Source of the DNA: Malacoraja senta
Lineage: Eukaryota
Assembly (NCBI GenBank): GCA_038087875.1
Contig: CM075989.1
Coordinates: 12,030,001-12,094,000 of the forward strand
Direction of reading: 5' to 3'
DNA: 64,000 nt
Shown: positions 9,110 through 64,000 of the stretch, piece after piece
Numbering within the stretch: position 1 is the first letter of the stretch
Layout of the letters: every line of letters starts with the position of its first letter
Position numbers and translations under genes: made by a program
Notes under the pieces: model-generated
The model's input: the letters and a program-made list of their open reading frames with translations, nothing else
Told to the model about the DNA's origin: nothing
The model's database searches: none

Positions 9110-9450
9110 CTGCCCCTCTGAAGGTGTGACATTCCCTCAGTAGTAAACATAAACAAGCACAGTGCTCCCTCAGTTTGGTCTCCCACCATGCAGTGGTCCC
9201 TTGGTACGGTCCCTCCACAATGCAGTGCTCCCTCAGTACTGCTCCTTCCACAGTGCAATGCAGTGCTCCCTTCCTACTGGTCCTCCCACAATGCGGTACT
9301 GCCCCTCCAACTGCACGGAGCTCCCTCACTACTGTTCCTCCAACAGTGCGGTGCTCCCTCAGTACTGCTCTCAGAGTGCAGCATTCCCTCAATACTGGTC
9401 CTCCCACAGTGCCGAGCTCCTCAGTACCTCCCCTCTCACAATGCAGCATT
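9110..9450. repeat. ~32-33 bp minisatellite (CAGTGCAGCACTCCCTCAGTACTGCCCCTC.. units)
   Basis: Degenerate tandem units visible directly. Confidence 0.85.
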
Positions 9451-9982: not shown

Positions 9983-10335
9983 CACTCCCTAAGTACTGTC
10001 TTACAGTACTGCCCATCGGCAGTGCAGCACTCCCTCAGTACTCTCCCTTGACAGTAGAGCACTCCCTCAGTACTGCTCCTCCATAATGCTGCATTCTTTC
10101 ATTACTCCCCACTAGCAGTTGCAATCCCGCACTACTGCCCCTTGACAGTGTTGCACTCTCTCAGTACTGCCCCTCCACAGTGCAGCACTCCTTTAGTACT
10201 GACCCTCTGACAGTACAGCACTCCCTCATTACTGCCCCTCTGACAACACAATACTCCCTCACTACTGCCTCTACAATTTGCTGCATTCCCTCCGTACTGC
10301 CCCTCTGATAGTGCTGCATTCCCTCGGTTGTACAG
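9983..10335. repeat. ~32-33 bp minisatellite, same family
   Basis: About ten degenerate units of CAGTGCAGCACTCCCTCAGTACTGCCCCTCTGA. Confidence 0.85.
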
Positions 10336-17759: not shown

Positions 17760-17900
17760 CCCAGGACGGGATGGGCGGGTTCATCTAACATCAATCATGG
17801 CGGGAAGGGCGGGGTTGGAGGGCGGAGTTGGAGCTGGGAGTTTGTCAATGGGCCGATGCGCTGCTTTTAGCCGAGTGAAGAACCGGGCTTCGCTCAGTCG
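17760..17900 (+). promoter_or_regulatory. CpG-island promoter: three GC boxes and an Inr-like TCAGT
   Basis: GGGCGG at about 17773, 17807 and 17820. TCAGT at 17894-17898. CpG-dense from about 17.75 to 18.5 kb. Confidence 0.65.
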
Positions 17901-18110
17901 CTGCCGCTCATCCATCCCGGACGAGGTGTCGCCAGTCACGGAGCAGGGCTGCGAGCCCCGCGGTACAACTACGGCCCGGGAGAGGAGAAGAGAGGAGAGC
18001 GAGGGAACTGGCACGCGGCGTCCGCACCCTTTCACCCACATCACCTTATCACTTTTCCAGCCAACTTTTCTCCGCCATGTGTTGGACGGAGAATTGATAA
18101 GGGCATGCGG
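17895..18110 (+). other. Probable first exon of an unidentified plus-strand gene
   Basis: Lies inside the CpG island and ends at the strong donor CGG|GTGAGC (GT at 18111). Contains a uORF MCWTEN* (18077-18097) and ATG CGG (18105-18110) directly before the donor. Confidence 0.55.
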
Positions 18111-18924
18111 GTGAGCTGAGCTTCGAGACGTGGGGGACGAGCTGCTTTGCTGCCGGACTGTGAGAGGGTGCAGTGAGTGTGCGGGGGGGAAGGGGAAGTT
18201 GGGCAGCGGGTGGGGCTGCGGTGTCGGTGTGAGAGAGTTGCTACATCGTTTGCATTGAGTTTCACTGCGCGCGAGTTGTGTTGCGCGTGCACCAGTCAGT
18301 GGCATCACGCGCGTACACATGCACCAGTGGCAGGGTCGCGACGCGCGCGTTTGTATGTGCGAGACATTGGCGAAGCGTGCGAGAGATAGTCGCGTACTTG
18401 TGAAGAAGGGATGGCGTCGCATGTGTGAGTGGGCGGCGCGTTTGCATGTGGGTTGTGTTGCGTGTGAGCAGCGGCAGCAACACATTCTGTTCAACTTTGC
18501 CCTGGGGCATTTCAGCTGGTAAGATTTATAAAAAGTTCCTGAACTACTTCAGAAAATAGGCAAGGGTTCCTCTTTTAAAAAGTGTCCTTCGGAGAAATGC
18601 AACTTTCCCCGCTGATGGTCAACATGTCACTCCTCTCATGAAGGAATGCCTTCTCTGCACCCATCCTTTGGTTTCGTGGAATGTTTGTTAATGAGATTTC
18701 TTGAATTACTGGTTTATGTGCAGCTCCACTGAGAGCTGTCGCTCACTCGGGTGTCAAGGTAGAAATATCTCTGCTCCACTCTCAACTCCCGCGGAAGACA
18801 TGTTATAAAGGTTGCAGCTCCTCGCAGCTCCTTTTAATCCCTTTCATGAACCCAGGATAACTCACCGCCTTTGAAGAGGGTTCACAGTTGTAGCGGAGGA
18901 AATGCAGCAGCCAATGTATGCAGA

Positions 18925-21048: not shown

Positions 21049-22179
21049 TTTAAGAAAGAACTGCAGATGCTGGAAAAATCGAAGGTAGACAAAAATGCTG
21101 GAGAAACTCAGTGGGTGAGGCAGCATCTATGGAGCGAAGGAATAGGTGACGTTTCGGGTGAGACCCTTCTTCAGACTTGTGTGGGGGGGGGGGTGGGGGG
21201 TGCGGGAAGAAGAAATGAAGAGGCGGAGACAGACTGTGGGAGAGCTGGGAAAGGGAGGGGAAGGAGGGAGAAAGCCAGGACTACCTGAAATTGGAGAAGT
21301 CAATGTTCATACCACTGGGGTGTAAACTACCCAAGCGAAATATGAGGTGCTGCTCCTCCAATATGCGGTGGGACTCTGGCCATGGAGGAGGCCCAGGCCA
21401 TCTTGTCCTCACCTTCCACCCTACCAGCCGTCACAACAGATAATCCTCCGACATTTTTGCCACCTCCAACGTGAACCCACCACTGGCCACATCTTCTCAT
21501 CTCCCTTTTCAGCTTTCCGCAGAGACCGCTCTCTCCGTAACTTCGTCCCTTCCCACCCAAACCACCCCCTCCCCGGTACTTTCCCTTGCAACTGCAGGAA
21601 ATGCTACACTTGTCGCTTTACCTCCCCCCTTGACTCCATCCAAGGACCCAAGCAGTCTTTCCAGGTGAGGCAGAAGTTCACCTGCACCTCCTCCAACCTC
21701 ATCTATTGCATCCGCTGTTCTAGGTGTCAACTGCTCTACATCGGTGAGACCAAGCGCAGGCTTGGTGATCGCTTCGCCCAACACCTCCACTCAGTTCGCA
21801 TTAACCAACCGGATCTCCCGGTGGCTCAGCACTTCAACTCCCCCTTCCATTCAGAATCTGACCTTTCTGTCCTGGGCCTCCTTCCTGGCCAGAGTGAGTC
21901 CCACTGCAAATTGGAGGAGCAGCACCTAATATTTCGCTTGGGTAGTTTACACCCCAGCGGTATGAACATTGACTTCTCCAATTTCAGGTAGTCCTTGCTT
22001 TCTCCCTCCTTCCCCTCCCCTTCCCTGCTTTCCCACAGTGTACTGTCTCCGCCTCTTCCTTTCTTCTTCCCGCCCCCCCACATCAGTCTGAAGAAGGGTC
22101 TTGACTCGAAACGTCACCTATTCCTTCGCTCCATAGATGCTGCCTCACCCGCTGAGTTTCTCCAGCATTTTTGTCTACT
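21049..22179 (+). mobile_element. Penelope-like (Neptune-type) element with inverted terminal arm and 15 bp TSD
   Basis: TSD GTCAGCATTGACATG at 21034-21048 and 22180-22194. 21049-21398 is the reverse complement of the element's own 3' end. Inserted in a CR1 3' UTR. Confidence 0.95.
21400..21991 (+). pseudogene. Penelope Cys-linker plus GIY-YIG endonuclease fragment
   Basis: GTFPCNCRKCYTC...NLIYCIRCSRCQLLYIGETKRRLGDRFAQH...LEEQHLIFRLGSLHPSGMN. 5'-truncated, no RT. Confidence 0.9.
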
Positions 22180-37597: not shown

Positions 37598-39597
37598 CAA
37601 GTTCAAGTTCAAGTGAGTTTATTGTCATGTGTCATTTTGTCATGTGATAGGACAATGAAATTCTTGCTTTGCTTCAGCACAACAGAACACAGAAGGCATT
37701 GACTACAAAACAGATCAGTGTATCATTATATAAATATATGCACACATGAATAATAAACTGATAAAGTGCAAATAACAGATAATGGGCTATTAATGTTCAT
37801 AGTTTTGTCCGAGCCAAGTTTAATAGCCTGATGGCTGTGGGGAAGTAGATATTCCTGAACCTGGTCGTTGCAGTCTTCAGGCTCCTTCTGCAGGTAGCAG
37901 GGAGATGAGTGTGTGGCCAGGATGGTGTGTGCCTTGATGATACTGCCAGCCTTTTTGAGGCAGCGACTGCGATAGATCCCCTCGATGGAAGGGAGGTCAG
38001 AGCCGATGATAGACTGGGCAGTGTTTACTACTCTTTGGAGTCTTTTCCTCTCCAGGGCGCTCAAGATGCCGAACCAAGCCACGATGCAACCGGTCAGCAT
38101 GCTCTCTACTGTGCACCTGTAGAGGTTTTAGAGAGCCCTCCTTGACAAACCGACTCTCCGTAATCTTCTCAGGAAGTAGAGGCACTGATGTGCTTACTTA
38201 ATAGTAGCATCAGTGTTCTCGGACCAGGAAAGATCTTCAGAGATGTGCACGCCCAGGAATTTAAAGCTCTTGACCCTTTCATCCATCGACCCATTGATAT
38301 AGACGGGACTGTGGGTCCCCATCCTACTCCTTCCAAAGTCCACAATCAGTTCCTTGGTTTTGCTGGTGTTGAGGGCCAGGTTATTGTGCTGGCACCATAT
38401 GGACAGTTGCTCGATCTCTCTTCTGTACTCTGACTCATCCCCATCAGTGATACGTCCCACAACAGTGGTGTCATAAGCGAACTTGATGATCGAGTTCGCA
38501 CCATGACCGGCTACGCAGTCATGAGTATAGAGTGAGTACACCAGGGGGCTGAGCACGCAGCCTTGAGGTGCTCCCGTGCTGATTGTTATCGAGTCTGACA
38601 CATTTCCACCAATACGAACAGACTGTGGTCTGAGAATGAGGAAGTCGAGGATCCAATTGCAGAGGGATGCGCAGATACACAGTTCTGCGAGTTTGGTAAC
38701 CAGCTTGGAGGGGATGATTGTATTAAATGCCGAGCTGTAATCGCTGAAAAACAGCCTGACATATGAGTTTTTGTTGTCCAAGTGGTCCAGAGTGGAGTGG
38801 AGGGCCAGCGAGATCGCATCCACCGTTGATCTGTTGTGGCAGTAAGCAAACTGCAGTGGGTCCAGGTTTTTGTCGAGGTAGGGGTTGATTTGCACCATGA
38901 TCAACCTCTCAAAGCACTTCATCACCACAGGTGTTAGTGCCACAGGTCGATAGTCATTGAGGCACGTCATCTTGCTCTTCTTGGGCACTGGTATGATTGA
39001 TGCCCTTTTGAAGCAGGTGGTAACCTCAGATCTCAGAAGTGAGAGGTTGAAAATGTCCATAAAAACTCCAGCCAGTTGGTCCGCACCGGTTTTTAGAACA
39101 TGACCAGGTATACCATCAGGTCCAGGCGCTTTTCGAGGGTTCACCCCTCTGAAGGATTTCCTGACGTCGGCCTCTGTGACTGAGACTGAAATACCATCAC
39201 AGCGAATGGGAGCTCGGGAAGGCACATTGGTGTTCTCCCTATCAAAGCGTGCGTAAAACGCATTGAGCTCATCAGGGAGTGGTGTTTCGCCGACATTCGA
39301 GCTGCCTCCTGATTTCGCCTTGTAGGAGGTGATTGTATTCAGGCCCCGCCACAGCTGCCGAACATCTGTCTCATCCTCCAGTTTGGAGCAGAAGTCCCTT
39401 TTGGTCTTTTTGATGGCCTTACCAAGGTCGTATCTGGACTTCTTGTAGACCACTGTATCATCAGACATGAATGTCCGGTGTCTGGTCTTCAGAAGAGTGC
39501 GGATCTCAAAGTTCATCCAAGGTTTCTGATTGGGAAACACTCGGAAGGTTTTTGTAGGGATGCAGTCCTCCACACATTTCTTAATGAAGTCTGTAAC
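37598..39597 (-). mobile_element. Rex1/Babar-clade LINE, 5'-truncated
   Basis: A 459 aa RT ORF, a frameshifted C-terminus (MLTGCIVAWFG), a 3' UTR and a (CTTGAA)n tail at about 37600-37615. Confidence 0.95.
38194..39573 (-). pseudogene. Rex1 reverse transcriptase ORF, catalytic motif mutated
   Basis: KAPGPDGIP, NDYRPVALT, DPLQFAY, FSDYSSAFNTI and GAPQGCVLSPL. KFAYDTT replaces KFADDTT. Frameshift near 38195. Confidence 0.9.
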
Positions 39598-40339
39598 GGC
39601 CCAGTTTATGATTGGCTAAATCAGGGATGAATGCAAAAGTCTCTCCCTTTTATTTTCAATTTTTGATTCAACTCCCTTTTGAAGAGTTAATTTTGTAGCT
39701 TGCTTTCACTGCCTAGATTACAACAAGCTCATGGGTATAATATTTCCTCTATCTCGGTATGTTCTGCTAGATCCTTTTAGTTATTCTCTATGGGCTTCCT
39801 GCTCTCCTGCCTCTAGAAGCAGAGTTGCATTGACTCTTTCATAAAAAACCCTCAAATATTTGAACACCTTTACCAATGCCCCCCTCTTAACTTCACTATA
39901 GTGAGAAGAATTGCAGTGTCTCCTCTCCTTAGGAAACTGCAACAACCCTCGATCATTGTGGTCAGTCTGCCTTGATACCGCATCCTTGCTGATGGCAGAG
40001 AATCCCACTTTCTGCAAGAAAAGGTGACTGAGAAAAGCGGAGGTGTATATCAAGAGCAGGAGGAGTTGGTTTGCTTACAAAGGCTGCAGAGGGAGCAGGA
40101 TTGAAATGCTGAGCATGTCCGATAAGCTTGGCAACTGTACAAATGGAAGAGACTTCTCAGGCTGAAGTGTAGCTGACATGGGCATCGTACATCCAAGCCA
40201 GCAACTCAACATTTTTCAAATGATGACAATAGTAAAACAAATCTGCATTTTTGTAATTTTCTATTTTGATTCCTGAACCCTTGTTTATTATCCAGACAGA
40301 GCCATCATCTTCTTACAAATCACACCCATTGATTACTTG

Positions 40340-55171: not shown

Positions 55172-56655
55172 GTACACAAAAATGCTGGAGAAACCCAGCG
55201 GGTGCAGCAGCATCTATGGAGCGAAGAAAATAGGCAACGTTTCAGGCCGAAACCCTTCTTCAGACTGATAGGGGGTGGGGAGAAGAAAGGAAAAAAGGCG
55301 GAGGAGGAGCCCGAGAGCTGGGGGAGGGGAGGAGACAACCAGAGGGCTGATGAAGGGGAGGGGACAGCAAGGGCTAGCAGAATTGGGAGAATTCAATGTT
55401 CAAGCCCCCAGGATGTAGACTGCCCAAGCGGAATATGAGGTGCATTTCCTCCAATTTCCGGTGTTGCTCACTGTGGCCATGGAGGAGACCCAGGACAGAG
55501 AGGTCAGATACGGAATGGGAGGGGGAGTTGAAGTGCTGAGCCACCGGGAGGTCAGGTTGGTTATTGCGGACCGACCGGAGGTGTTCGGCGAAACGATCGC
55601 CAAGCCTCCGCTTGGTCTCACCGATGTAGATCAGCTGGCATCTAGAGCAGCGGATGCAATAGATGAGGTTGGAGGAGATGCAGGTGAACCCCTGTCGCAC
55701 CTGGAACGACTGCTTAGGTCCTTGAATGGAGTCGAGGGGGGAGGTGAAGGGACAAGTGTTGCATCTCTTGCGGTTGCAAGGGAAAGTACCCGGGGAGGGG
55801 GTGGTACGGGAGGGAAGGGAAGAATTGACAAGGGAGTTACGGAGGGAGCGGTCTTTGCGGAAGGCAGACATAGGGGGAGATGGGAAGATGTGGCGAGTGG
55901 TGGGGTCACGTTGGAGGTGGCGAAACTGACGGAGGATCACTTGTTGTATGTGACGGCTGGTGGGGTGAAAGGTGAGGACTAGGGGGACTCTGCCCTTGTT
56001 GTGAGTGGGGGGATGGGGAGAGAGAGCAGTGTTGCGGGGTATGGCAGAGACCCTGGTGCGAGCCTCATCTATGGTGGAGGAGGGGAACCCCCGTTCCCTG
56101 AAGAATGAGGACATTTCGGATGCCCTGGTGTGGAACGCCTCATCCTGGGAGCAGATGCGGCGTAGATGGAGGAATTGGGAGTGCGGGATGGAGTCCTTAC
56201 AGGAAGCAGGGTGGGAAGAAGTGTAGTCCAGATAGCCATGGGAGTCGGTAGGTTTGTAGTGGATGTCGGTAAGAAGTCTATCACCTGCGATGGAGATAGT
56301 GAGGTCAAGGAATGGTAGGGAAGTGTCGGAAATGGTCCAGGTGTATTTGAGTGCCGGATGGAAGTTGGTGGTGAAGCGGATGAAGTCAGTCAGTTGTGTG
56401 TGGGTGCAGGATGTGGCACCAAAACAGTCATCGATGTAGCGGAGGTAGAGGTCGGGGATGGGGCCCTGGTACGCATTGAAAAAGGATTGTTCTACGTACC
56501 CGACAAAGAGGCAGGCGTAGCTGGGGTCCATGCGTGTGCCCATAGCTACGCCTTGTATTTGGAGGAAATGGGAGGAGTCAAATGAGAAGTTATTGAGGGT
56601 AAGGACCAGCTCCGCTAGGCGGAGGAGGGTGTCAGTGGCCGGGTATAGGTTGCTA
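55172..56655 (-). mobile_element. Young Penelope-like (Neptune-type) retroelement, 5'-truncated, 16 bp TSD
   Basis: TSD TAGTCTATGAGAGCAG at 55156-55171 and 56656-56671. Uninterrupted ORF followed by a pLTR. Confidence 0.97.
55374..56654 (-). CDS. Penelope RT (C-terminal part) + Cys linker + GIY-YIG endonuclease, open to the truncation point
   Basis: LNNFSF..QIQGVAMGTRMDPSYACLFVG, YLRYIDDCF, LPFLDL, PCNRKRCNTC and LIYCIRC..IYIGETKRRLGDRFAEH. No stop over about 426 codons, but the N-terminus is missing, so this copy is probably not functional. Confidence 0.9.
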   Translation of the reverse strand, partial: SNLYPATDTLLRLAELVLTLNNFSFDSSHFLQIQGVAMGTRMDPSYACLFVGYVEQSFFNAYQGPIPDLYLRYIDDCFGATSCTHTQLTDFIRFTTNFHPALKYTWTISDTSLPFLDLTISIAGDRLLTDIHYKPTDSHGYLDYTSSHPASCKDSIPHSQFLHLRRICSQDEAFHTRASEMSSFFRERGFPSSTIDEARTRVSAIPRNTALSPHPPTHNKGRVPLVLTFHPTSRHIQQVILRQFRHLQRDPTTRHIFPSPPMSAFRKDRSLRNSLVNSSLPSRTTPSPGTFPCNRKRCNTCPFTSPLDSIQGPKQSFQVRQGFTCISSNLIYCIRCSRCQLIYIGETKRRLGDRFAEHLRSVRNNQPDLPVAQHFNSPSHSVSDLSVLGLLHGHSEQHRKLEEMHLIFRLGSLHPGGLNIEFSQFC

Positions 56656-58004
56656 TAGTCTATGAGAGCAGTTGGAAACCATTCATTACCTGATTGTGAA
56701 GAACTATATCACATGCTGTGACTACTACTGCCAAGCAAGTCATGGACAGCAAGCAGATATAGAAGATTGCAGAAGCTGGAATCTTGAGCAAAAAAAAAAA
56801 CTGCTGGAGGAACTAAAACTGGGCAAAATAGCGGGTATGATTTCTGCTGTCCTTTAAATTATACCATGGAAAACCATGGTGTGTGCCTGGATCTGGACAA
56901 CATTACCACAGGTAATAGTTGGGCTGTGGTAGATAATTAGATAAACTCATTGAAGAATGCTGATGGGCTTAGGGTGGTCCAATGGCAGGAGTGAACATCA
57001 ACATGGCTGCTTTGCAGTAATTTGTCTTAAAGTGCTGAACAGAGAAATGAGATGAGTATGCAGCTCCCATACTTCTTGTTCGTTGGATTATTGCCTCCAT
57101 TAAAGGGAATCAACATTCAGTTCCACTGAGAGACAGAAAACACTGCAAATGTTGGAATCGGCAGCAAAAATCAAACTACTGTGGAAACAACGACCTGTCT
57201 TGCCTTGGCCACTTCCACTGCCAGGTCAAGGCCAAATGCAACTGGAAGAAAGTACCTCATATTTTGCCTGGCTGTCTACAACTCAACAGGTCTCCATCCA
57301 ATGTTGTCGGTCCATTTCCTCATTGTCGGTCCCTCCACAGATGTTGCCTGACCCAGTGAATTTGTCAAGCAGTTTGTTTTCTACCATAGGGATTTGGCCA
57401 CGCATCTGGAGGTCCACGCTGGTCTCCAATCATTAAATCCTTCCAAGACCCCATAAAACCCAAATCAGAAGTTAATGAGATTAATGCAACTGTGGTAAAT
57501 GTTACTCCGATTTATTGCTAATTACTTTTTCATTATATATAATAGTTCAGTTGTTGGCTGAAGACTTGTGTCACAGTGCAGCATCCAGCTTCACCAATCT
57601 CGAACAATCTTTTAGAAAGGTTGAACAACATGTCAAATCCAGCTGTAAATTAATGGAGAAAACCTGCAACTTCACAGACTTATTGTAAGATTAATTCTGA
57701 AAGAGATAAAATCCCACAGAAAGCATTTTGATGTGAAGCTGAGCTCAGTAAGCTGGCTTTCAAAACAGAACAGTTCTCTGGAAGCAGTTTGAAGCTGGTG
57801 AGCTGTCAGCTCAAAACCACTCTGACGTAGAATGCAGTCAGATTTGTTTATAATCTGCCCCCAGCGCTTTGATCAAATGGAAACCCAATGAAACTGATTT
57901 CTTCCACCCTTTCAACATTGACCCCAAGGTTTAGCCTCAAAATCTCTTGGAATGGTTGCATGGAAGAAGAGTGGCAATAGGTGTGAGATATAAGTGGGTA
58001 TCTC

Positions 58005-59374: not shown

Positions 59375-60760
59375 ACAATCCCTGTTCCAGGCGTACACTG
59401 GCCCTATCCCCAAACTCTATCTCCATTACATCAGTGCTACCTCCTGCACCCATGCAGAACTCATGAATCATCAACTTCACCATCAATTTTAATCCTGCAC
59501 TCAAATTTACTTGGACCATCTCTGTCACCTCCCTCCCCTTTCTTGATCTCACAGTCTCCATCACAGGAAATAGACTATTGACTGACGTCTATTACAAACC
59601 CACTGACTCCCACAACTATCTCGACTACACTTCTTCCCACCCTGCTTCCTGCAAAGACTCTACCTACTCCGAATTCCTCCGTCTATGCCGCATCTGCACC
59701 CAAGATGAGGCGTTCCATACCAGGACATCTAAGATGTCCTCATTCAATAGGGAACGGGGGTTCCCCTCTCCCATCATAGATGAGGCCCTCACTCGTGTCT
59801 CCTCGGTACCCCGCAGCTCCACTCTTGCTCCCCCTCCCCCTAGTCGCAACAGAGACAGAGCCCCCTAGTCCTTACATTCCACCCCATCAGCCGTGGCATA
59901 CAAAACATAATACTCCGAAATTTCCACCACCTCCAACGGGATCCCACCACTAGCCACATTTTCTCATCTCCACTCATTTCCGCCTTCTGCAGAGACCGTT
60001 CCCTCCGCAACTCCCTGGTTAACTTATCCCTTCCCACCCAAACCACCCCCTCCCTAGGTACTTCCTCTACAACAGCAGAAGATGCAACAGCTGTCGCTAT
60101 ACCTCCTCCCTCGATTCTGTCCAGGGACCCCGACAGTCCTTTCAGGTTAGACAGAAGTTCACTTGCACCTCCTCCAACCTCATCTACTGTATCCGTTGTT
60201 CAAGATGTGGACACTTATACATCGGCGAGACCAAACGCAGACTGGGCGATCGTTTCGCGGAACACCTTCGCTCATCCCGCCTGAACCAACCTGATCTCCC
60301 GGTTGCTGTACACTTTAATTCTCCTTCCCATTCCTACAGACATTTCTGTCCTAGGTCTCCTCCATTGTTAGAGTGAGGCTAAATGCAAAATGGAGGAACA
60401 GCATCTCATATTACGCTTGGGCAGCTTACAGCCCAGTGGTATGAATATTGATTTCTCTCACTTCAGGTAGCCCCGGCATTCCCTCTCTCTCTATCCCTCC
60501 CCCAACCAAGTCGCACCAGCTTTTCATTTTCATCCTACAAACAGCTAACAATGTCCTGTTTCCTTTATCATCGTTACTTTTTTGCATATCTTTTATTCAT
60601 TGTTCTTTATCTCTCCACATCATTGTCTATATCTCTCATTTCCCTTATTCCTAACCAGTCTGAAGAAGGGTCTCGCCCCAAAACGTCACCCATTCCTTCT
60701 CTCCAGCGATGCTGCCTGTCCCGCTGAGTTACTCCAGCTTTTTGTGTCTATCTTCGGTTT
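59375..60760 (+). mobile_element. Penelope-like element, 5'-truncated and frameshifted
   Basis: TDVYYKPTDSHNYLDYTSSHPASCKDS...; GIY-YIG codons (LYIGETKRRLGDRFAEH) at about 60.2 kb; pLTR at 60657-60760. Confidence 0.9.
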
Positions 60761-61404: not shown

Positions 61405-61800
61405 GGACCTCCTCGCATACCCTACGTAAAAATCCCGAAATAGACACTATTCCGTGGTCTGTCACGGGAAGGGATTACCAGGTGAACAGAAGAAAAAAAT
61501 TCAAGGATGTGCTGAAAGTGTCTTTGAAGAAAAACAAGAAACACAACATCTTCACTGACTCCTGAGAATCTCTGACTCATGACCTTTCAAAGTAGCAAAG
61601 GAGCCTTCAGGATGATATTGTAAAACTCGAGTCCATGCATCAGAAGCACAAAGAATACCAGTATTAACAGTGGAAGCATCTCCTATCTCATTTGTGGAAG
61701 AGTCTGTGTTCCGCACTAGCCTCATTAGCCACTTCAGAACCTACCAAACAGCATGGACGTAAGTCACACTCGGTCTCAAGGGACTGCCTAAGAAGTGATG
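61405..61800 (+). mobile_element. RTE-clade LINE 3' fragment
   Basis: Residual CHGKGLPGEQKKKFKDVLKVSLKK...ESLTHD, typical of an RTE C-terminus. Confidence 0.65.
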
Positions 61801-62789
61801 GGTAGTGTGCGAGGTGAGCTGTGTGTCACAGGAGTGGTGTGCAAGGGGAATAATACAAGGAGAGGTACCACCATTCATAGGTACTGGTAGTGTGCAAGCA
61901 CGGTTGTGGAACCAAAGCAGTATAAAGGGAATATGTAAGTCTCCACGCTGTAAAATGTCAGTAGAGCTTTATTAAAGGAGATGGCAATGAACAAATATGC
62001 ATTGAAGACACATTAGAGTGCAGTAGCAATCTCCTAGGATACCTCGGCAGCTCACTCTGATCACAGATCGTAATGTCGGTAAAAATAAAACAAAAGGACA
62101 ATGTGAGCCCCTGTGCAAGTGGAGGCGATGTTAATAAGATCAAAGTGGAAAAATGAATTTAGATAATCCAATAATCCCTGATGTACTGTACACTCCCATG
62201 AGTGTGTACACATGCACATGCATACAGAAATATACACTCAACCAATGGATCAAACCTCTGAGTCCTACCACGTCTAGTCGGGAATGGTAGTGGACAATTA
62301 AACAGCTAACCCAGGAGACCCTAGACACATCCCCATCCTCCACAATGGCAGGGACATGCATCTGACTGCTAAATTTAAAAATTGAAGCATTCACAACTAA
62401 TGTTCAGCAGAAATAAGCGAGTTCGGTATTTAAACTGCGCATGCCCAGGTCATAGGTCACTCGAGATAAACATTCGCGGCACCAGAGCTGCTGCGTTTCA
62501 TCCGTAGTCAGGATCGAACCCGGGTCTCCAGCGCTGCAAGCACTGTTGAATTGCCACTGGAGTTAGCGACACTTCTCCCTTCTCCACTGGTCCATGCAGA
62601 AATCTCAGCAGTGAAAATCTAATGTGCATAAACTGCATGTGAAAACAACATGTGTGAGAGGGCCAATTTCTCGGCATTAATATCGGAGTTTGGGCGTGGG
62701 TCCAGCATCAGGAACGAGCCCGGAGATGAAGTCGGGGCCTGGACTGGATCCCAGGCTGCGGCCGAGCTGAGGGCTGGAGTCGTGGCCAA

Positions 62790-63031
62790 ACCCGGGGCCT
62801 GGTCAAGGTGTACCAGCGCCTTGGGTGCCACCCGGTCGCTGCCATCCTGCAGCACAGCCTCTGCTTCCTGCTCTGGCTCAGCCACCGGCCACCCTCACCC
62901 TGCCACTGGCACAGCGAGCCCGGCTCCGTCGAGACCCAGGTCCACGAGTGCTTCGGCCGCCTACAGCCAGGGCCAGGCCGAGTACGAGAACCAGGCCGTG
63001 TTCAAGGCCCTGGCGCTGCTCTACTACATGG
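62790..63031 (+). pseudogene. Exon-like coding fragment of an unidentified gene, one apparent frameshift
   Basis: GC3-rich frame RGLVKVYQRLGCHPVAAILQHSLCFLLWLS...ETQVHECF switches at about 62955 to GC3-rich AAYSQGQAEYENQAVFKALALLYYM. Ends at the donor ATGG|GTAGGT (GT at 63032). Confidence 0.6.
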
Positions 63032-63039
63032 GTAGGTGC

Positions 63040-63440
63040 TGGGGCAGGGAATGGGAGGAGGATGAGGGAAATGGGGAGGAGGGAGATGGGATGGGTAGAG
63101 GGAGATGGGTGGGGGGGAGGGTTGGGGGGCCTCGCTGTCTACCCACTGGCGAGGGATAACGCACCGCGCCGTTATACAGCAGGGGGGGGAGAGGAGAGAA
63201 GGGATGAGGGAGGGAGGGGGAGAGAGGGATGAGAGAGGGAGGGGGGAGAGAGGGATGAGGGAGGGAGAGATGAGGGAGGGAGAGGGGAGAGAGGGATGAG
63301 GGAGGGGGGAAAGAGAGGGAGTGGGGTAGAGGGGAGCTGGAGTCCAGGGGGGTAGCGAGGAGGGTAGAAGGGGTCTGGGGAGATGGGCAAGGTGGGATAG
63401 AGGGGGGGGAGTAGAGGGAGAGGGGGACAGGGAGGGTGGA
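63040..63440. repeat. Polypurine (GA-rich) low-complexity tract
   Basis: GAGAGGGATGAGGGAGGG-type units. Confidence 0.85.
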
Positions 63441-63779
63441 TTTGATGGGAGCGGGATAGGCGTGAGTGGTGGAATATTACATTGGGGGAATGGGTTGCGT
63501 TGGGGAAACAGGTGAGTGGTGGAATATTGCGTTGGGGAACGGGTTACGTTGGGGGACCAGTCCTCCCTTGTGACAGGGACCCAAGGGTCCCACTTAGTCT
63601 AGTTAAATCTAGAAATGGCCAAGAACACTGGATGCAGCAACTATGTGACCCAACCACATCCTGGCTGCAGTACTGAAGAATTGTGCTCCAGAACTAGCTG
63701 CACCTCTAGCCGAGCTATTCCACTACAGTTACAATACTAGTACCTATTCGACAATGTGCTGTCTTTTTAGTATTGCTCC

Positions 63780-64000
63780 TGCAACAGTGCTACGCTGCCT
63801 TCAATAATATAAGCTGATAATAACATTGCCCTCCAATAATATACGCTGACTAAACACTCGCCCTCCAACGTGCAACACTGCCTCAGTACTGTCCTTCCAA
63901 TTGATCAACGTTCCCTAAGTACTGGTGCTCTCACAGGGCAGTGCGCCCTCAGTACTATACCTCCAAAGGTGCTATAGTACCTCAGAACTGCTCCTCTAAT
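63780..64000. repeat. ~32-33 bp minisatellite, same family as 9.1 and 10.0 kb (runs off the window end)
   Basis: Degenerate CTCAGTACTG..CCTCCAA units. Confidence 0.7.

Follow-up and report, generated by a model that had tools for sequence, protein, structure and literature searches.

A captured SAC3D1 exon fragment with its splice donor inside a dispersed, probably Helitron-type, mobile family of skates

In the skate Malacoraja senta, the stretch of DNA analysed here (the window: 64,000 nucleotides of contig CM075989.1) contains a GC3-rich fragment of a SAC3D1 exon that is captured cargo inside a dispersed mobile family and not a resident exon. The fragment is broken by frameshifts, nothing else of the gene lies in the window, and the piece belongs to a multi-copy family with unrelated 5′ flanks; together these observations identify it as captured. 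The carrier is probably a non-autonomous rolling-circle transposon of the Helitron HLE1 type, an assignment based on two traits of this one copy, its 3′ end and its missing target-site duplication (TSD), and on the A/T-rich sequence that flanks other copies. The features of the element and its flanks are as follows.

62260..62411 (+), left flank, an old repeat read as a putative LINE ORF2 remnant
62412..62455 (+), 5′ terminal segment, common to very many copies, from contig ends and depth
62456..62682 (+), inner non-coding part including the SINE scrap, across which other contigs chain
62502..62546 (+), SINE scrap nested in the element, from depth and shared continuations
62683..62802 (+), block A, the skate repeat insert of SAC3D1, P0002 residues ~76-108
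62803..62961 (+), block B, P0002 residues 202-256
62956..63031 (+), block C, P0002 residues 259-284
63032..63037 (+), donor-like GTAGGT, beginning exactly at the end of the SAC3D1 likeness
63040..63440 (+), GA-rich low-complexity tract, from sequence composition
63462..63511 and 63512..63560 (+), subterminal tandem duplication of 50 + 49 nt
63576..63591 (+), G+C-rich palindrome GGGACCC-AA-GGGTCCC, ending 11 nt before the 3′ end
63599..63602 (+), CTAG, the presumed 3′ end, after a 7-nt spacer and followed by T
63603..63753 (+), right flank, a decayed LINE ORF2 piece from just before the RT domain, from alignment

The initial annotation had proposed that the exon was captured from another gene, whose parent it left to a protein search, and the proteins bear this out. 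A phmmer search with 62781-62954 as the query against 1.84 billion proteins gave five matches, one of them credible: P0002, recorded as SAC3 domain-containing protein 1-like from Rhinoraja longicauda (71% identity, E 1e-9). The other four, P0001 and P0003-P0005, are repetitive or unnamed frames with 26-51% identity and were set aside. P0002 contains the Pfam domain SAC3_GANP (E 5e-69), and its best PDB match is human SAC3D1 (E 8e-51). By tblastn, matches of P0002 to the window were confined to 62677-63033, plus one chance match (E 0.58), and its residues 1-75 and 285-444 had no match within the 64 kb. Pfam, PDB, and ESM Atlas searches with the window's own frames did not recognize the SAC3D1 piece, and a word-index protein search missed it. 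The Rhinoraja SAC3D1 proteins P0002, P0006, and P0007 contain a low-complexity repeat insert at residues ~76-185 that is missing in human SAC3D1, and the Rhinoraja gene is annotated under two records, on a 6.6-kb contig and on a 32.8-Mb contig, which are either a duplicate gene or an assembly duplicate.

The fragment consists of three blocks in changing frames, spanning residues ~76-284 in ~115 codons with two frameshifts. Block A, from the stretch missing in the human protein, is identical to P0002 at 19 of 33 aligned residues (tblastn E 4e-7). Block B (36 of 51 identical) begins after a frameshifting deletion of ~17 codons and lacks 4 further codons inside, and block C is identical at 20 of 26 residues. 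Between blocks B and C, we infer an apparent frameshifting deletion of ~11 nt; a 1-nt insertion at this point was considered and dropped because the parent protein implies a deletion. GC3 reaches 0.92 in the 53 codons of 62796-62954 and 1.00 in the 25 codons of 62956-63030, and no stop-free 40-codon stretch elsewhere on the + strand of the window exceeds 0.80, in line with the initial description of this piece as the window's only strongly GC3-biased coding-like sequence; the minus-strand maximum of 0.95 is the antisense of the same piece. The start of the coding-like part, first placed at 62790, has to be moved to the left, as SAC3D1-derived sequence already begins near 62683 in the protein alignment. 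Its end was placed correctly: the exon closes at 63031, and the likeness to P0002 stops at residue 284, exactly at the GT of the donor at 63032. Human SAC3D1 presumably has an intron at the matching position, and the GA-rich tract at 63040-63440, also present as described, is possibly captured SAC3D1 intron.

Compared with human SAC3D1, the captured sequence represents the central part of the skate homologue's SAC3 domain, without the N-terminal 75 residues, ~17 conserved mid codons, and the C-terminal 160 residues. In the PDB-match alignment, the absent N-terminal residues fall opposite the human segment that contains the wedge-loop arginine R102. According to the accessible portion of a study of the human SAC3D1–PCID2–SEM1 complex (PDB 9RV1), this complex frees RNA from UAP56, and R102 is required for SAC3D1 activity (PMC13391367). 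A piece without the wedge-loop stretch would therefore yield no working SAC3D1. Neutral cargo is its most likely status.

Evidence for the family comes from sequencing runs, 23 of 24 of which contain part of 62250-63750, under 10 organism codes. Contigs were compared over 62100-63045 only, in four runs: X1, X3, X6, and X23, the last first guessed to be RNA and judged probably DNA. The other 19 runs, with word shares of 0.05-0.27 that were mostly small, were left out of the evidence. Depth over the left flank is that of a single contig (26.5, 16.8, and 45 in X1, X3, and X6, X23 being without coverage there). Relative to this flank, depth in X1, X3, and X6 is 4,000-7,000 times higher at 62420-62451, 8-14 times at 62644-62675 (a part in which this copy shows local divergence too), 317-1,947 times at 62708-62771, 16-239 times over the central part of the exon piece, 695-3,952 times at 62964-63027, and 100-1,200 times at the donor (63028-63045). 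Summed contig depth is not copy number, and as an order of magnitude only it indicates hundreds to thousands of copies of the element. The exon piece is multi-copy in X1, X3, and X6, which bear three organism labels, and present in X23, and the carriers are likely several skate genomes. A single-copy exon spliced in frame, the outcome against which the initial annotation had set its own reading, is not what these runs contain, the piece being both multi-copy and frameshifted.

The copies are dispersed, as contigs that end just before 62412 (180, 213, and 179 in X1, X3, and X6) have flanks that agree at only 0.34-0.35. These ends cluster 11 nt to the left of the boundary first assigned, 62423, which lies inside the element. 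The element starts at ~62412, and the family may reach 1-3 nt further left than this copy. Because the unrelated contig flanks all stop before 62412, the letters at 62412-62422 belong to the element and not to the LINE; the TC at 62423 is thus internal, and the junction of this copy, initially read as T|TC, is AGA|AATAAG. Flanks of other copies are A/T-rich, with majority last letters TAC, TTC, and TAC in the three runs, where a majority letter over A/T-rich flanks neither fixes the 5′ dinucleotide nor establishes A|TC. This copy has GA right before 62412, and its left junction looks deleted, which hides the target base.

Depth in X1 is 206,647 at 62431, compared with 5,246 at 62482, and since the 5′ segment is so much deeper than the inner part behind it, 62412-62455 is likely common to several families with different insides. 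Contigs of other copies chain over 62413-62573, 62491-62624, and 62507-62661. The scrap at 62502-62546, which we take to be a SINE, is present as first described: it has the top depth of 62100-63045, and contig ends continue on both sides of it into one common sequence. None of the contigs listed reaches from the 5′ end into the exon; this, together with the depth dip at 62644-62675, suggests that the exon piece may mostly travel with other 5′ parts. Within the window there is no second copy of the element, matches being found only to the SINE scrap and the GA tract.

At the 3′ end, the hairpin, the 7-nt spacer, and CTAG|T stand in position and letter as initially described, and so do the 50-bp tandem duplication at 63462-63560 (43 of 50 columns identical, 86%) and the missing TSD, which measures 0-1 nt for each of five left ends tried (62409-62412 and 62423). 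The predicted fold of the palindrome has a stem of 6 bp and a loop of 4 nt, at an energy no better than that of shuffles (z 0.07), and a 7-bp palindrome with CTRR within 3-15 nt occurs at 13 other places in the window, with a CTAG|T ending only here. Because of this fold score and these other places, the hairpin plus CTRR of this copy is, by itself, a weak Helitron mark. No terminal inverted repeat (TIR) was found in 61500-64000 (best 6 nt). The 3′-end pattern gave 0 matches in viral, metagenome, and prokaryote collections, as did the 5′ pattern in metagenomes, collections in which skate DNA is not expected; the antisense frame of this terminus, compared with proteins to detect copies recorded as spurious proteins, found none.

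Comparison among copies indicates an order of events in the history of the family. Other copies have stayed nearer to SAC3D1 than the one studied here: from their majority letters, 40 of 203 differing sites were listed, and of the 20 analysed at 62707-63004, 16 lie in codons mapped to P0002. In 14 of these the residue changes, each time to that of P0002, and the other 2 are silent. Shorter deletion subfamilies exist and appear to outnumber the long form. Eleven of the 15 joints listed (among 84) skip from 62741-62781 to 62961-62989, they are seen in all four runs, and such shared joints account for the outer blocks of the fragment being several times deeper than the middle. Record 7 of X1 (62855-63024; 24 other letters in 170) crosses the second frameshift without a gap, and the diverged records 2 and 3 of X1, 20 of X3, and 28 of X6 cross the first without a gap, further records having 8-12 gap letters there. 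As the frameshifts are common to diverged copies, the cargo was frame-broken before much of the spread. Most compared contigs are 90-95% or <90% alike; the family is old and this copy decayed.

The insertion at this locus is likely common to organisms A, B, and D, as contigs of X3 and X6 cross from the flank (~3% different) into the element, reaching 62441 and 62440, or 30 and 29 letters inside. They fall just short of the 31 letters of the bridging rule, and 29-30 letters would be the length expected where a contig made from 31-letter words enters a repeat. X1, whose flank contig has 0 differences in 362 nt, may be the source of the window itself; X1 is not independent for the locus, and its diverged contigs are paralogues. 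No empty site was found among the rows listed for the four runs over 62100-63045, a listing that leaves out 956 loose ends.

The initial annotation placed the element between two collinear halves of an old LINE. This stands for the right flank, where 63649-63753 aligns to residues 166-200 of the LINE frame at 38197-39615 (-), with 1 of 500 shuffles as good, and is not confirmed for the left flank, which has no significant alignment to that RT frame (204-296 of 500 shuffles as good). By depth the left flank is an old repeat: it stays close to the level of a single copy except for a slight rise at 62260-62323 (458 and 328 compared with 26.5 in X1). Both flanks presumably come from one LINE of cartilaginous fish and are collinear in it, with a gap of roughly 25-30 codons at the junction. 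The LINE at 38197-39615 (-), a 473-codon open RT frame, is probably a younger insertion. A degenerate tandem-type repeat at 63750-64000 is also found at 9114-9436 and 9983-10309 (60-69% identity).

The remainder of the window is rich in repeats. A Pfam scan of 214 frames (213 stop-free frames of at least 75 aa and one flank frame), which misses short exons and missed the SAC3D1 piece itself, gave nine matched frames: five reverse transcriptase, three GIY-YIG, and one chance match. None of these was a Helitron domain, and an autonomous partner was likewise not seen. Penelope-like retroelement pieces with GIY-YIG lie at 55374-56708 (-), a 444-codon open frame, and at 21326-21988 (+) and 59467-60376 (+). 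A mir-184 precursor lies at 18032-18114 (+; Rfam, 64 bits), in a G+C- and CpG-rich stretch at ~17800-18500; its mature sequence apparently differs from the usual form at one position outside the seed.

The palindrome 11 nt from CTAG|T, the absence of a TSD and of a TIR, and the cargo in the element's orientation all fit a Helitron. As defined in the accessible part of PMC11417382, an HLE1 element starts with TC, ends in a hairpin plus CTRR, and has an A|T target. A different reading, which we regard as unlikely, is that two neighbours are being seen as one, the 5′ part and the SAC3D1 piece lying in a Pack-TIR that has lost its right end, and the hairpin-CTAG being a separate Helitron piece or chance. 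The flank letters TAC before 62412 in two of the three runs would fit a TA target followed by C, and the hairpin-CTAG is known from this copy alone and is a motif common by chance; however, an inverted copy of the 5′ end is absent from 61500-64000, LINE-like sequence resumes right after CTAG, and multicopy Pack-TIRs are rare in animals, with four cases (1.4%) in the portion of PMC8277862 available. It is improbable that the element is a Helitron2/Helentron (HLE2), a rolling-circle type with T|T insertion and short subterminal inverted repeats. The T-rich flanks beside the 5′ end of other copies and the TT after CTAG here would suit such an element, whereas no inverted repeat of 11-18 nt joins the ends (62405-62470 against 63440-63610; best 6 nt, in one decayed copy), and a hairpin with CTRR marks HLE1 in the accessible text of PMC11417382. 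RNA-based spread, as a retroposed copy or a SINE-like family, is very improbable: the SINE scrap adjoins, and the piece is truncated on its 5′ side like retrocopies, yet it stops at a GT donor, the family goes on into non-coding sequence and not into the next exon, and neither a poly-A tail at the piece or element nor a TSD was found. A resident or segmentally duplicated SAC3D1 exon of a gene or pseudogene amid repeats is scarcely credible and is rejected together with the retrocopy. In its favour, a donor closes the likeness, and a further exon might be located past position 64000; against it, the piece has very high depth with deletions shared among paralogous contigs, two frameshifts, no match for residues 1-75 in the 62 kb upstream, and no pyrimidine-rich acceptor upstream (a pyrimidine fraction no higher than 0.63 ahead of each of 15 AGs).

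For a Helitron, known capture routes offer a model of how the cargo was acquired. In the accessible portion of the work on Helraiser, the palindrome lies 11 nt from CTAG, the left end is needed and the right is not, and the element reads through to new ends (PMC4778049). In bats, by the available text of PMC4224331, host DNA was captured by composites in which the 5′ end of one element was paired with a 3′ end lying downstream; this end-bypass route was traceable in only 3 cases, and 26 were without a related Helitron near the parent. Helitron cargo tends to lie in the element's own orientation, according to the part of PMC12001565 available. By analogy, the 5′ end of an ancestral skate Helitron would have started copying at or near SAC3D1, continued across the exon with its donor, and terminated at a downstream hairpin-CTAG end (end bypass, or composite transposition). 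A RepHel transposase acting in trans would have copied the composite around the genome, and early frame-breaking deletions would have been amplified with the element, giving rise to the shorter subfamilies. One copy would have inserted into the old LINE at this locus, likely ahead of the divergence of organisms A, B, and D, and a small deletion likely removed the first bases of this copy and some of the LINE. A shared 5′ end with a variable inside, an exon in the same orientation, the hairpin-CTAG|T, and the absence of TSD and TIR fit this order of composite capture. We infer both the capture route and the position of the parent intron; capture by gap repair into an existing element is a possible alternative to end bypass. 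It is conceivable, at a low probability, that the copies serve as exon traps for transcripts of the host or yield silencing RNAs directed at SAC3D1, a nuclear RNA sorting factor, and that the family has a non-TC 5′ end, which would make it a structural variant of HLE1.

Capture of gene fragments by Helitrons is documented in vertebrates, in bats and Xenopus, and the principle is not new. Our literature search, with subscription papers and Repbase/Dfam outside it, found no Helitron gene capture in cartilaginous fish and no SAC3D1 cargo, and the family may already be present in a repeat library. The skate family would be a case from a third vertebrate lineage, one whose parent gene can be traced, whose copies are numerous and include nested deletion subfamilies, and whose insertion at this locus several species likely have in common. 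It could be used for dating the capture, for testing end bypass at the parent locus, and for asking whether the donor is used. In practice, the annotation of genes and short-read analyses of skate SAC3D1 can be led astray by the copies.

Among known systems, as far as the accessible portions of the published accounts describe them, the closest is HelibatN3 of bats, which carries a NUBPL exon with its donor in about a thousand copies and is able to trap exons (PMC4224331, PMC4778049). Like HelibatN3, the skate element is non-autonomous, holds a piece of a host exon with its donor and the following sequence between its ends, and is high-copy in a vertebrate. Unlike that of HelibatN3, the skate cargo starts mid-exon, without a visible promoter or start codon, amounts to ~115 codons with two frameshifts common to copies, and resides in a cartilaginous fish; in this comparison the skate 3′ end is known from one copy, and a TC start is not established. 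The hairpin 11 nt before CTAG is shared with Helraiser. In Xenopus laevis, Heli1Xen1 has 19 coding fragments in 64 insertions, with at most 17 copies named in the part of PMC12001565 available. The skate family resembles it in having host coding fragments in non-autonomous HLE1 copies in the element's orientation but, in contrast to these young, low-copy captures, is old and by depth far more abundant. Pack-TIRs are likewise animal DNA transposons with host sequence, but on the available text of PMC8277862 they need TIRs, which were not found at the skate element, and are mostly single-copy.
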